From the NCBI RefSeq assembly GCF_003018255.1, contig NZ_CP027441.1: a stretch of 64,000 bases of DNA; one strand, 5' to 3'. This DNA is from Escherichia coli (lineage in GTDB: Bacteria; Pseudomonadota; Gammaproteobacteria; Enterobacterales; Enterobacteriaceae). The number at the start of each line of letters is the position of its first letter. Position 1 is the stretch's first letter. A program made the position numbers. Of the stretch, positions 21,001 to 27,000 are shown piece after piece.

Positions 21001-24000
21001 AGTGAGCGTGTTTCGTTCCAGTTTGCTATCCACAGGCACCGGACATGTCAGTTGATAAAGAGCATGAGCATACCCTTCACTGCAGATGATTCTGCCATCG
21101 GCACTCCGGCAAAAAGTAAGAATAACCCAGTAAGGGGGACGTATTCCGCCCTGCGCTTCACCATTAATACTGATCCCCCGCACAGGTCTGATGACCTGAA
21201 TATTACCGTTCGCCCAGTGAATTTCCACAGCATCACGACAGATGTGCTGCGCCATAAAAATCTGAAAGAACATATGTTTTCTTCTGGCAGGCCAGTGTCG
21301 TTCTGAATTCTCCAGCGTTTCCATTAACCGCTCCTGAGACCTTTCAGACATTCTCTGCCAGGCGCATGTCGATGTAATCCATAAACGGTTTCAGCTTAAC
21401 CATTTTGTGGCGGGTCTTTCTGGCTGGCGGTTCAGGGTATTTGAGGTAGCGTCTGACCGTCCGTTCAGAGCAACCAATCTGAGTCGCAATATCGACAATG
21501 TACGCGCCCTGCTGGCGCATTTGCTTTATCATGTAAAAGTCCTCTCTGCTCAGCATGTTGATGTCCTTTCTGGTGTGAGAACCTTAAGGAAACAACATGT
21601 TGGGTGGAGCGGACAATCCAAATGGTGAATTACCGTCTTATATCACTGGCGCTGACAGCCTCCACCCTCTGGCTGACAAAAGCGCGTTACCAGTACCTCC
21701 TCCGGCTTGATGCACAGCCTCTGCCGGAGTCGAGGATCGCCTTGCTCCTGCACCTGGTATCTGATAACGGTGCATCATTAGAGGAGGTTGAGGCCCAACC
21801 GTACGGTAAGAGGAAAATTATCGTCTGAAAAATCGATTGGGAGACAAGATCGTCCGTTAAGTGACGATTTTTGATTGAAAAGACTCCGATTTGAGGGCCT
21901 TTGATATATCAGACAGCTACATCACTGGCATACGTTTCCGCTCCATTGACCTTCAGTCCCCCCAATAACTATTAATTGAACGCCCCGCGTAATTGAGGTT
22001 GTGCAAATATTTGTTACAATATAACATCACAAAACATAACATATGTTTTCGAATGTATATGAACGTAATCAAAACTGCTATTTGTACATTAATCACACTA
22101 CCTGTGGGACTACAGGCCGCGACCAGTCATTCTTCTTCGATGACTAAAGATACAATAACCGTTGTTGCGACAGGAAATCAGAACACGGTATTTGAAACGC
22201 CGTCGATGGTCAGTGTCGTCACGAATGACACACCGTGGAGTAAGAATGCGGTCACATCAGCCGGTATGCTGAGAGGTGTTGCGGGTCTCAGCCAGACTGG
22301 TGCAGGACGGACCAATGGGCAGACCTTTAATCTACGCGGCTATGACAAAAGCGGGGTACTTGTTCTTGTTGATGGTGTCCGTCAACTCAGTGACATGGCA
22401 AAAAGCAGTGGCACTTATCTGGATCCAGCACTCGTCAAACGTATCGAAGTTGTCCGCGGACCAAATTCCAGTCTGTACGGCAGTGGCGGACTGGGAGGTG
22501 TTGTGGACTTCAGAACTGCCGATGCAGCAGATTTTCTTCCCCCCGGAGAGACAAACGGTGTAAGTCTGTGGGGAAATATCGCCAGTGGTGACCACAGTAC
22601 AGGCTCTGGGCTTACCTGGTTCGGTAAAACCGAAAAAACAGATGCGCTCCTTTCTGTCATTATGCGTAAAAGAGGAAGTATCTATCAGAGTGATGGTGAG
22701 CGTGCACCTAACAAGGAAAAACCTGCAGCCCTGTTTGCGAAAGGCTCTGTCAGTATTACAGACAGTAACAAAGCAGGTGCCAGCTTACGCCTCTACCGGA
22801 ATAGCACCACTGAACCGGGCAATCCAACTCTGACACATGGTGACAGTGGCCTGCGTGACAGAAAAACAGCACAGAATGACATGCAGTTCTGGTACCAGTA
22901 CGCCCCTGCAGATAACAGTCTCATCAATGTAAAATCGACACTATATCTCAGTGATATCACCGTCAAGACAAACGGCCACAACAAAACAGCAGAATGGCGA
23001 AACAACAGAACCTCCGGTGTTAATGTTGTCAACAGGAGTCATTCTCTGATTTTTCCGGGAGCCCATCAGTTAAGTTATGGCGCTGAATATTACCGTCAGC
23101 AGCAGAAGCCGGAAGGCACTGCCACACTATATCCGGAAGGACACATTGACTTTACATCATTGTATTTCCAGGATGAAATGACTATGGAAAGCTACCCGGT
23201 TAACATTATCGTCGGTTCCCGTTATGACCGATACAATAGCTTCAATGCCCGTGCCGGAGAACTAAACGCTGAACGTCTGTCCCCCAGAGCAGCGATGTCT
23301 GTCTCACCGACAGACTGGCTGATGATGTACGGCTCCATATCCTCTGCATTCCGGGCCCCCACAATGGCAGAAATGTACAGGGATGATGTACATTTTTACC
23401 GCAAGGGCAAACCTAATTACTGGGTTCCTAACCTTAATCTGAAACCTGAAAATAACACCACCCGTGAGATTGGCGCAGGTATTCAACTGGACAGCCTGCT
23501 TACAGACAATGACCGACTGCAGTTGAAAGGCGGATATTTCGGAACGGATGCCAGAAACTATATTGCCACGCGCGTGGATATGAAACGGATGCGTTCTTAT
23601 TCTTATAATGTATCCCGGGCCCGTATCTGGGGATGGGATATTCAGGGAAATTACCAGTCTGATTATGTTGACTGGATGCTTTCTTATAACCGGACGGAAA
23701 GTATGGATGCCAGCAGCAGGGAATGGCTGGGCTCCGGCAATCCTGACACACTTATCAGTGACATCAGCATACCTGTTGGTCATAGAGGCGTTTATGCAGG
23801 ATGGCGTGCTGAACTTTCGGCACCAGCCACGCATGTGAAAAAAGGCGACCCCTGTCAGGATGGCTATGCCATACATTCCTTTTCACTGTCTTATAAGCCT
23901 GTAAGTGTTAAAGGCTTTGAGGCGTCAGTAACTCTGGATAATGCCTTCAACAAGCTTGCCATGAATGGCAAAGGTGTGCCGCTTTCAGGCAGAACCGTCA

Positions 24001-27000
24001 ATCTTTATACCCGTTATCAGTGGTAACATCTCAGGAAATAAATCATGATGAAAAATACAGGCTATATCTTAGCTCTTTGTCTGGCTGCATCGTGCCAGAC
24101 CCTGGCCCACGATGTCTGGATTACCGGTAAACAGGCAGAGAACAACGTTACTGCAGAGATTGGTTATGGCCATAATTTCCCCTCAAAGGGCACGATTCCT
24201 GACAGAAGGGATTTCTTTGAAACTCCCCGACTTTATAACGGGAAAGAGACAATAACGCTGAAACCAACGTCCACGGATTATGTCTATAAAACTGACTCTG
24301 CAGGCAACGGTAATAGCTACGTTCTGTCAACGAAAATGAAACCGGGATACTGGTCGAGAACCTCATCAGGATGGAAGCCTGTCAGCAGGGAGGGCAGAAA
24401 TGATGTGACATACTGTGAGTTTGTGACTAAATATGCAAAATCTTTTATTCCTGGTGAACAGCAGATGCCAGCACAACTCTATCAGTCTCCAACAGGGGAT
24501 GAGCTTGAAATCATTCCATTATCCGATATCAGTCGTTTCGGTGAAGATGTGAAGCTGAAAATTCTGTATAAAACGTCCCCTCTTGCCGGAGCCACTCTGG
24601 AGCTTGACTCTGTCAGTTATCTGAAATCATCCCGTCACACTCATGCAGCAGAGCATAAACATTCGGCTCATAAAGCAGAACTTACCTTTGTAAGTAATGA
24701 GGACGGTATCATCACTATACCTTCCCTTCATGCCGGGCAATGGCTGGCTAAAGTCAAAAATAAGAAAGTATTTCCGGACAAGAGCCTGTGTGATGAAACT
24801 GTCGATGTGGCAACCTTAAGCTTCTCCCGAAATTAATAATAGAGGGTGAGTGCCAACCGTACAGTAAGAGGAAAATTATCCTCTGAAAAATCGATTGGGA
24901 GACAAGATTGTCCGTTAAGTGCAAATATTTGATTAAAAAGACACCGTTTGAGGACTATTGATATATCAGACAGTTAGCCACAGGTGTACGTTTCCATTTA
25001 CCTTCAGACCACTTAGCAAATTGCTGTCTTAATTTGACGACTTTTCCCGGCCTTTATGGCCGGGATTTTTTCCCTTCTGTTTCCACAATGCCCGGCACCG
25101 GTGACACCTTACGGTGTACGGAGAGCGGCTGTCGGGCATTTTTTCAGGACGCCTTTATGACAATTCTATCCCAGGAAAACCCTGTCATTCGTAAGCGCCT
25201 CATTTAAACCGTCTTTCGCCTCCCTTTCCTGTTTCCGATACTAATGTCCATTTTCGTAAGCGTAAACCGACCGCCGTATGTAGCCATTAGACAAGAATTG
25301 GTAATTTAGACGCCCATCTGACACAGACGGACATCTAAGTATGGAATTACAGGACTGGCGAAAAGAACCTCGTAAAAAGTATTCGAATGAATTCAAACTT
25401 CGTATGGTTGAACTGGCATCACAACCCGGTGCTTGTGTGGCTCAGATTGCACGAGAAAATGGCGTCAATGATAATGTTATTTTCAAATGGCTCAGACTCT
25501 GGCAAAACGAAGGGCGTATATCACGGCGTCTTCCGGTGACAACCACTTCTGACGCAGGCCTTGAATTATTACCTGTAGAGATAACCTCTGATGAGCCGAA
25601 AGAACCGATGGCTGCTCTTATTCCGCCCTTATCCACTCAGACTACTGTCAGTGCCAGCTCCTGCAAGGTGGAGTTCCGTCACGGTAACATGACGCTGGAA
25701 AATCCTTCACCAGAGCTGCTCACTGTATTGATTCGTGAACTGACCGGGAGGGGAAGATGCTCTCACTCCCATCCGGTACCCGTATCTGGCTCGTGGCCGG
25801 GATAACCGATATGCGTAAGTCTTTCAACGGGCTGGGTGAACAGGTACAGCATGTGTTAAATGTTAATCCCTTCTCCGGTCACCTGTTTATCTTCCGTGGC
25901 CGACGGGGTGACACCGTTAAAATTCTTTGGGCTGATGCTGATGGTCTGTGCCTGTTCACCAAACGCCTGGAGGAAGGCCAGTTTATCTGGCCTGCGGTGC
26001 GTGACGGTAAGGTATCCATTACCCGCTCGCAACTGGCAATGCTCCTCGATAAGCTGGACTGGCGTCAGCCAAAAACATCCCGCCTTAACGCCCTGACAAT
26101 GTTGTAAAAAACGCCTGGCCGCATTATAAAAACGGTCATGAGTCAGAAATACCTCATTCGCATTGCAGAACTGGAAAGCCTGCTCCGTCAGAAAGACCAG
26201 CAACTGAGTCTGGTTGAAGAGACGGAGGCCTTCCTGCGCTCTGCACTGGCACGTGCCGAAGAAAAGATCGAAGAAGATGAACGGGAAATAGAACATCTGC
26301 GGGCTCAGATAGAAAAACTGCGCCGGATGCTGTTCGGTACCCGTTCTGAAAAACTGCGTCGTGAAGTTGAACAGGCTGAGGCCCTGCTGAAACAACGCGA
26401 ACAGGACAGCGATCGTTACAGTGGGCGGGAAGACGATCCACAGGTTCCCCGCCAGTTGCGACAGTCGCGCCATCGTCGTCCGTTACCGGCACACCTTCCC
26501 CGTGAAATACACCGTCTGGAGTCTGAAGAAAGTTGTTGCCCGGAATGTGGCGGCGAGCTGGATTATCTGGGGGAAGTCAGTACTGAGCAACTGGAACTGG
26601 TGAGCAGCGCCCTGAAAGTGATCCGCACAGAACGGGTAAAAAAAGCCTGTACAAAATGTGACTGCATCATTGAAGCACCGGCGCCGTCCCGCCCGATAGA
26701 GCGTGGTATCGCGGGCTCCGGATTACTTGCCCGCGTGTTAACGGGAAAATACTGCGAACACCTGCCACTGTATCGTCAGAGTGAAATCTTTGCCCGACAG
26801 GGTGTCGCACTGAGCCGTGCATTACTCTCCAACTGGGTTGACGCGTGCTGCCAGTTAATGACGCCGCTGAATGATGCCCTGTACCGTTATGTGATGAATA
26901 CCCGCAAGCTTCACACTGACGACACACCGGTAAAGGTACTGGCACCGGGCCTGAAAAAGACGAAAACAGGGCGCATCTGGACGTATGTCCGGGATGATCG

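Follow-up and report, generated by a model that had tools for sequence, protein, structure and literature searches.

The present analysis concerns a stretch of 64,000 nucleotides of the Escherichia coli contig NZ_CP027441.1 (assembly GCF_003018255.1; the whole stretch is hereafter called the window), in which a two-gene cassette, coding for a TonB-dependent receptor of the heme/hemoglobin type and a periplasmic DUF4198 protein, is bracketed by two direct repeats, winL on its left and winR on its right. A preliminary description of this DNA had placed the repeats at 21792-21968 and 24852-25012 with about 85% identity; the pair was confirmed, and its limits were refined to 21783-21961 (winL, 179 bp) and 24842-25012 (winR, 171 bp), with an identity of ~86% over the aligned non-gap columns (145/169) and small indels. 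Three explanations had been offered for these repeats, namely recombination sites, small-RNA genes or miniature mobile elements that moved the cassette, and the last of them is the one supported here. Judged by their sequence, winL and winR are diverged, internally deleted copies of IS101, a Tn3-family miniature element (TIME). The main components of the locus are the following.

21783..21961, minus strand: winL, a diverged and deleted IS101 copy lying in the reverse of the conventional orientation, i.e., from left (IRL) to right (IRR) terminal inverted repeat; 86% identical to IS101
22053..24026, plus strand: gene of the TonB-dependent heme/hemoglobin receptor family, 657 aa, with the RefSeq-style start MYMNVIKT; a longer open reading frame (ORF) with a TTG start runs from 21993
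24045..24836, plus strand: gene of the DUF4198 periplasmic protein, 263 aa, with a signal peptide, HDVW as the predicted mature N-terminus and a stretch rich in His (residues 198-209)
24842..25012, minus strand: winR, the second IS101 copy, in the same orientation as winL; it shares the 10-bp and 20-bp deletions of winL, has lost a further 5 bp in its other terminal repeat, and has the tips GAGG and CCAC

IS101 of pSC101 is a 209-bp TIME derived from the Tn3 family, without a transposase, which has 38-bp terminal repeats of the gamma-delta type and an internal res site (PMC4133298; PMC13367494). It is mobilised by the Tn1000 transposase and its res is functional with the Tn3 and Tn1000 resolvases (PMC4133298). 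As reference we used the 209-bp copy of pKFu015_4, which is identical to pSC101 2024-2232 and is the exact reverse complement of the IS101 given in Table S2 of Gomi and Yano 2026 (PMC13367494). Each window copy is ~86% identical to IS101 (E 6e-31 for winL and 8e-30 for winR), and since both copies match it at this level, the repeat pair is far from anything expected by chance. In an alignment of eight copies, the ends are sharply defined and carry inverted repeats like those of the Tn3 family (GGGGTTTGAGG…ACGAAAAC…TAAG). Both ends of the window copies are homologous to the terminal repeats of IS101 and Tn1000, and the ends of IS101 are in turn identical at 33/36 positions to those of Tn1000 in the F plasmid (4191-10171). 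The interior of IS101 has the layout of the gamma-delta res (site I of 28 bp, spacer of 22, site II of 34, spacer of 5 and site III of 25), and the conserved blocks of the repeat coincide with the binding sites of transposase and resolvase. The earlier view that the repeats were not recognisable ends of insertion sequences (IS) is thus superseded, given that they match IS101, with its inverted repeats of the Tn3/gamma-delta type and its res site.

Relatives of winL were found on 619 plasmids of PLSDB, from many enterobacterial genera and Aeromonas, and in the complete E. coli genomes 459 of the 461 places are plasmid-borne. Nearly all of the matches listed have no annotation beneath them, and the neighbour genes of the repeat are different in every one of the replicons examined (ColE1-type, IncQ2, IncF, IncI and IncFIB/IncU). 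Both window copies fall within the size range of miniature elements (50-500 bp) and contain no transposase gene; the only ORFs touching them enter from outside, i.e., the altered 3' end of a traB-like gene in winL and a 56-aa minus-strand ORF (24754..24924) at the start of winR. A larger segmental duplication was ruled out, as the homology between winL and winR ends at the tips of the element. As a separate observation, a 66-nt remnant of IS101, consisting of one terminal repeat and part of site III (97% identical), lies in a Salmonella IncI plasmid (L008, 2977-3042), with a DUF6404 gene close to colicin Ia on one side and the gene of an anti-phage ATPase on the other. Remnants of this type probably account for much of the 142-record band at 95-99% identity in the E. 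coli search (query 18-59), to judge from 14 sampled rows with a 42-bp match of 95.2%, among which L008 alone was inspected.

That the repeats are themselves functional sites or genes, either cer-type Xer multimer-resolution sites or small-RNA genes, is almost certainly wrong. Homologues of the repeat do occupy the usual cer location in ColE1-type plasmids, but these homologues are IS101 itself, and a cer-type Xer site was ruled out by the lack of any significant similarity to ColE1 cer (core verified at ColE1 3909-3938) and of any XerC/XerD core inside the repeats. Just outside winL, at 21972-21988, the minus strand agrees at 15/17 positions with the XerC arm and the start of the central region of ColE1 cer (GCGGGGCGTTCAATTAA; E 0.055 in a tiny search); this is probably due to chance, and a credible XerD arm is absent. 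For a small RNA one could point to weak, sub-threshold Rfam matches near 25010-25080, but these correspond to the backbone terminator hairpin and not to the repeat, and all of them are far below the gathering scores. On the repeats themselves, the Rfam search was empty both at gathering scores and at E<=10 and the folding equals that of shuffled sequences (z of -0.5 and -0.3, both strands), so the small-RNA option was discarded. The term recombination sites, on the other hand, holds in a historical sense only: both copies have lost the crossover half of res site I, and a cer/Xer site is absent. The subsites were located as follows, in winL from the gamma-delta/IS101 geometry.

21783..21810, minus strand: winL terminal repeat (conventional IRR), 28 instead of 38 bp long, the ACGAAAAC box having been lost in a 10-bp deletion; its tip is GGAGG, not GGGG
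21822..21846, minus strand: winL res site III-like dyad, 25 bp, mapped from the geometry 28-22-34-5-25
21852..21885, minus strand: winL res site II-like dyad, 34 bp, by the same mapping
21903..21915, minus strand: winL surviving half of res site I; a 20-bp deletion has taken its other half together with part of the I-II spacer
21924..21961, minus strand: winL terminal repeat (conventional IRL), full length, with substitutions, GGGG tip kept
24880..24904, minus strand: winR res site III-like dyad
24910..24943, minus strand: winR res site II-like dyad
24960..24972, minus strand: winR surviving half of res site I

As both copies are reversed relative to the conventional orientation of IS101, they are direct repeats of each other. 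They have in common the 10-bp deletion in the terminal repeat, the 20-bp deletion, by which site I lost its second half and the adjoining spacer was shortened, and several substitutions. Intact 38-bp repeats with GGGG tips are not found in either pair of ends, CCCC being kept only at the inner end of winL; likewise, neither copy has a complete res site, as site I is without its crossover half, although sites II and III are retained. The divergence between winL and winR is uneven, with 91-96% identity across the part containing sites II and III and ~77-88% elsewhere. In PLSDB, this deleted variant of IS101 is restricted to ~35 plasmids of the pO113, O91 and blackbird types, always together with the cassette.

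The flanks of the unit belong to a plasmid backbone in which the site without the unit could be identified. Three segments describe them.

21658..21828, plus strand: 3' part of a NusG-family (IncI traB-like) gene, cut on its 5' side by the end of an IS21-family element (~21657); positions 21658-21770 are 98% identical to the intact genes of the comparison loci L013-L016
21771..21782, no strand: the 12 nt adjoining winL (TGCATCATTAGA), without a match to the empty site; TTAGA, their last 5 nt, may be a target duplication in decayed form
25013..25190, plus strand: resumption of the IncI/K backbone, with 5 unmatched nt (TTAGC), a terminator hairpin (25045-25065) with a T-run, and, from 25158, the first codons of a truncated traC-like gene; 99.4% identical to L016 from 25018

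A chimeric query that joined the outer left flank to the outer right flank was used to search for the empty site and matched IncK2/Z and IncI-type plasmids as one continuous piece. The window segments 21658-21770 and 25018-25190 are 98-99% identical to this uninterrupted site, which reads from a NusG-family gene through a terminator into a traC-like gene and is present in 465 of the 5,426 complete E. coli genomes searched; the NusG-family gene there occupies the position of the traA-traB-traC arrangement of IncI plasmids. Since at these empty sites the left outer flank joins the right one directly, the unit (copy, receptor gene, DUF4198 gene and copy; ~3.23 kb) entered as one block. Its entry point is the last codons of the traB-like gene, the C-terminus of which was changed: the reading frame now runs into winL and ends …LVSDNGASL|EEVEAQPYGKRKIIV, where the intact gene ends …SDDGALT. 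On the inner side, the homology of the cassette to the IncF alleles described below stops exactly at the tip of winR (24841/24842) and fades within ~20 nt of winL.

The plasmids of the pO113 type (NZ_CP028382, NZ_CP027585, NZ_CP027451, NZ_CP027372 and others) have an intact second traB-like copy, with the empty site, in addition to the IS-truncated fragment that holds the cassette. The second copy presumably serves the R64-like transfer system and, because two traB-like regions are carried, the pO113-type plasmid is taken to be a mosaic of two IncI-complex backbones. The junctions of the unit are identical in the pO113-type, O91 and blackbird plasmids, and the sharing of them by three lineages points to a single insertion event.

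We favour, with reasonable but not high confidence, composite transposition of a TIME-COMP-like unit, i.e., a cargo bounded by two TIMEs, here decayed IS101 copies, as the origin of this arrangement. In a donor replicon, two direct IS101-type copies would have come to bracket the heme-receptor/DUF4198 pair, forming a unit of ~3.23 kb. A single insertion would have placed this unit, in one piece, at the 3' end of the traB-like gene of an IncI/K-type backbone, with a transposase of the Tn1000 type, acting in trans, as the likely agent. The backbone fragment was later truncated by insertions of IS21- and IS66-family elements and is now part of the pO113-type megaplasmids of Shiga toxin-producing E. 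coli (STEC). As in other TIME-COMPs, two TIME copies surround a cargo without transposition genes, and the entire unit is missing where the same site is found uninterrupted. Experiments have demonstrated transposition, with 5-bp duplications, of TIME-COMPs that have direct or inverted TIMEs at their ends (PMC4133298), and those bounded by IS101 are documented with qnrD1 and blaKPC-2 as cargo (PMC13367494). Given that the terminal repeats are degenerate and the crossover half of site I is missing, the copies should be inert to transposase as well as to resolvase, and the structure of today is best read as an immobile relic of a single insertion event, in which the repeats only mark the edges of the cargo.

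Several observations weigh against this origin. The outer pentamers, TTAGA and TTAGC, match at 4/5 positions and do not form a clean target duplication of 5 bp. All empty sites, even in relatives of as little as 87% identity, have the 13 nt AGCGTTGACATGA, which are matched neither by the 12 nt preceding winL nor by the 5 nt following winR, and a clean empty site with TTAG[A/C] was not found in PLSDB, the 5,426 complete E. coli genomes or metagenome contigs. Moreover, the deleted IS101 variant was not found in any other place, or as a solo copy, in PLSDB, species-representative genomes or metagenomes. The divergence of winL from winR (~86% identity) far exceeds that of the flanks from the empty sites (98-99% identity), and the outer ends, with the 10-bp deletion in the left outer repeat and mutated tips, make it doubtful that a transposase could have used them. 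Finally, the three largest ORFs of the window, the only ones of ~1,000 aa or longer, code for EhxA, an HlyB-type exporter and a trimeric autotransporter adhesin and not for Tn3-family transposases. As the copies are more diverged than the flanks, they had become different before the arrival of the unit and were probably already deleted; the 10-bp deletion in particular, being common to both, is probably older than the insertion. An uninterrupted traB allele reading GGTGCATCATTAG[A/C]AAATTGCTG (…GGTGCATCATTAG[A/C]AAATTGC…) would give a clean 5-bp duplication. The more divergent traB alleles have different gene ends. The left 12 nt resemble a diverged allele of the same gene end (DNGASL versus DDGALT*), and one reading is of an old insertion whose flanks were later homogenised by recombination up to the heterology.

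Two other routes to the same arrangement have to be weighed against composite transposition. In one of them, a solo copy of the variant was present at the traB site, and a circle with the cargo and a related copy recombined into it, leaving two hybrid direct repeats; Gomi and Yano proposed such a route for structures bounded by MITESen1 (PMC13367494). It would dispense with intact outer ends, it might yield the uneven divergence between winL and winR, as hybrids or gene conversion could, and a target duplication around the whole unit would not be expected, as it would belong to the older solo insertion. That older insertion should, however, have left its own 5-bp duplication at the same outer flanks, where it is equally absent, and in the collections searched the variant was not found as a solo copy, either at the traB site or elsewhere. 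Recombination between copies of ~170 bp that are only ~86% alike would also be very inefficient, and a version driven by resolvase is disfavoured by the broken site I. We therefore regard circle integration as unlikely.

Still less probable, in our view, is an imprecise capture, in which a donor fragment slightly larger than the unit (~21771-25017) took the place of 13 bp of the backbone through illegitimate recombination, with the IS101 copies as mere passengers close to its ends. The degenerate ends and tips would be in line with it, as would the junctions themselves, where the adjoining sequence (12 nt and 5 nt) does not occur at the empty site and 13 nt of the target have been lost. But the break points would then lie no more than 12 nt and 5 nt away from the outer tips of two elements that by definition delimit transposition, which is an unlikely coincidence. 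The edges of the cargo likewise fall at the inner tips. In addition, the pentamers adjoining the tips match at four of five positions, and the likeness of the left 12 nt to a diverged gene end suggests old target rather than donor DNA.

Regarding the cargo itself, the receptor exceeds the cut-off of the NCBIfam model TIGR01785 (419.2 bits versus 316.85) and aligns over its full length with the structures of ChuA and ShuA (E 1e-166 and 1e-162). The heme-receptor motifs announced for it, FRAP and NPNL, were recovered in part: the FRAP box is present and H447, the equivalent of His420 of ShuA, is kept, but the NPNL box reads NLNL and the plug residue His86 is replaced by a lysine (Lys117). In ShuA and ChuA, this plug histidine is one of the two heme ligands. 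The substrate of the receptor is likely heme, but it may differ from that of the classical heme receptors. The close relatives of the receptor are all plasmid-borne, with 94% identity in E. coli (the common plasmid allele, in a cluster of 3,619 sequences) and 82% in Klebsiella, followed by chromosomal receptors at 43-54%. At the DNA level, ~713 plasmids, for the most part of the IncF type and from E. coli, carry an allele of the cassette with 92.4% identity, and there is another allele of 96%, both of them without IS101 flanks.

The second gene agrees with the secreted HDVW partner that had been described, with a signal peptide and HDVW as the predicted mature N-terminus, and the cassette can thus be retained as a pair of a heme-type receptor and a secreted protein. 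The protein matches PF10670 (E 9e-27) and the structure 9MHI of Zcp (E 2e-24), a periplasmic zinc-buffering protein with three zinc-binding histidines and the only characterised member of the DUF4198 family. It has a histidine at the predicted first mature residue (22) and the His-rich stretch RHTHAAEHKHSAH, which together suggest that it could bind metal.

A promoter-like site was noted upstream of the receptor gene.

21993..22020, plus strand: promoter-like site (TTGAGG, 16-nt spacer, TG, TACAAT), a consensus match only, in sequence weakly homologous to the upstream region of the IncF alleles

The cargo is probably transcribed from this site of its own and terminated at the old backbone terminator (25045-25065) past winR. 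A Fur box, for which a check had been proposed, was not detected above background: between 21780 and 22120 there is no match of at least 12/19 to the consensus, with a background of 2.8 such matches per kb.

The window is matched by STEC megaplasmids of the pO113 type (100% for NZ_AP027257 and 99.9% for NC_007365), in agreement with the plasmid origin that had been assumed for the cassette. The placement of the cassette between IS21- and IS66-family elements was also correct, as seen from an istA fragment on the left and IS66 terminal repeats on the right.

21344..21657, minus strand: end of an IS21-family element, with a 70-aa N-terminal istA fragment (21344-21556, minus strand)
25251..27765, plus strand: complete IS66-family element with tnpA, tnpB and transposase genes and terminal inverted repeats at 25251-25279 and 27737-27765

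The first 58 nt of the chimeric query, on the IS21-family side, are found at 100% identity in many plasmids. IS100 of pF11A was considered as the source of this fragment and rejected, as it gave no blastn match; the element is a different member of the IS21 family. A 230-aa ORF on the minus strand (window 20659-21351) has no NCBIfam match and overlaps the truncated istA fragment by 8 nt. To the right of the unit, IS66-family elements have been inserted independently in the three lineages, at three separate positions within ~300 bp, i.e., at ~25190-25255 in the window, inside winR at window position 24953 in the blackbird plasmid pRM14516 (L012, 9171/9172), and at window position 25144, in the opposite orientation, in the O91 plasmid pRM7190-2 (L020, ~8362); this stretch looks like a local hot spot for insertions of the family. 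Further away, the minus strand of 41358-54050 codes for the enterohemolysin EhxA (2304 bits, above the cut-off), the HlyB-type exporter and the trimeric autotransporter adhesin of 1436 aa, a set that fits a virulence plasmid of STEC negative for the locus of enterocyte effacement.

The structure is a further example of a known mobile structure and not a new kind of element. It was missed by the published survey because this demanded at least 95% identity and coverage and considered only resistance genes. Miniature elements derived from Tn3 are easily overlooked, nearly all of the matches inspected here being without an annotated feature, yet old and diverged copies are still recognisable by their terminal repeats and res dyads. 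The composite transposition proposed above would mean that the mechanism behind the resistance TIME-COMPs also moved a heme-receptor/DUF4198 pair into the backbone of an STEC virulence plasmid, and it gives a concrete history for the acquisition of the cassette by pO113-type plasmids. The locus is also a natural test of the idea that directly repeated elements with res are unstable unless the crossover site is lost. Gomi and Yano argued that such TIMEs are unstable when a resolvase is present (PMC13367494). Since the crossover site is dead in both copies, the cargo here would not be excisable by the Tn3 and Tn1000 resolvases, which are common on E. coli plasmids; the loss of site I in both would remove the instability, with selection and simple decay leaving the same picture in the sequence. 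A tentative extension, which we put forward as doubtful, is that the shared loss of half of res site I let a directly repeated IS101-type composite persist, as a 'res-dead' sub-lineage fixing its cargo, which would at the same time be a TIME-COMP spreading a virulence-associated metal-uptake cassette.

Compared with known systems, the receptor resembles ShuA and ChuA in its full-length homology, its FRAP box and its His420 equivalent, but it is only 43-44% identical to chromosomal receptors of the ChuA/ShuA type, and whereas these occur with the chu/shu heme-utilisation genes, that of the window is paired with a DUF4198 protein. With Tn1000 (gamma-delta), the unit shares the sequence of the terminal repeats (33/36 between IS101 and Tn1000) and the res architecture (28-22-34-5-25); in contrast to Tn1000, it has no tnpA or tnpR, its res subsites are only loosely similar and its copies lack a complete site I. 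To IS101 the window copies are similar along their whole length (~86%), with the same gamma-delta-type terminal repeats and with the site II and III dyads in the same order and spacing; they likewise have no coding capacity and are almost solely plasmid-borne. In contrast to intact IS101, one terminal repeat of each is 10 bp shorter and without the ACGAAAAC box, the 20 bp with half of res site I are gone, three of their four GGGG tips are mutated, and winR has its extra 5-bp deletion, so that with 86% identity and ~85% of the length they do not reach the thresholds for counting as IS101 (at least 95% for both). The closest parallels are the IS101 TIME-COMPs of Gomi and Yano 2026, those with qnrD1 (pKFu015_4, direct copies) and blaKPC-2 (pEkFL23_IncX3, inverted copies), which likewise consist of two copies around a cargo without transposition genes. 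These have the clean target repeats AGCTA and ATTCT, which the window unit, with its old, mutually diverged and defective copies, does not. They are 1.9-11.4 kb in size, versus 3.23 kb here, are likewise plasmid-borne with an identifiable uninterrupted ancestral site, and carry resistance genes where the window unit carries a metal/heme-uptake pair on a virulence plasmid.

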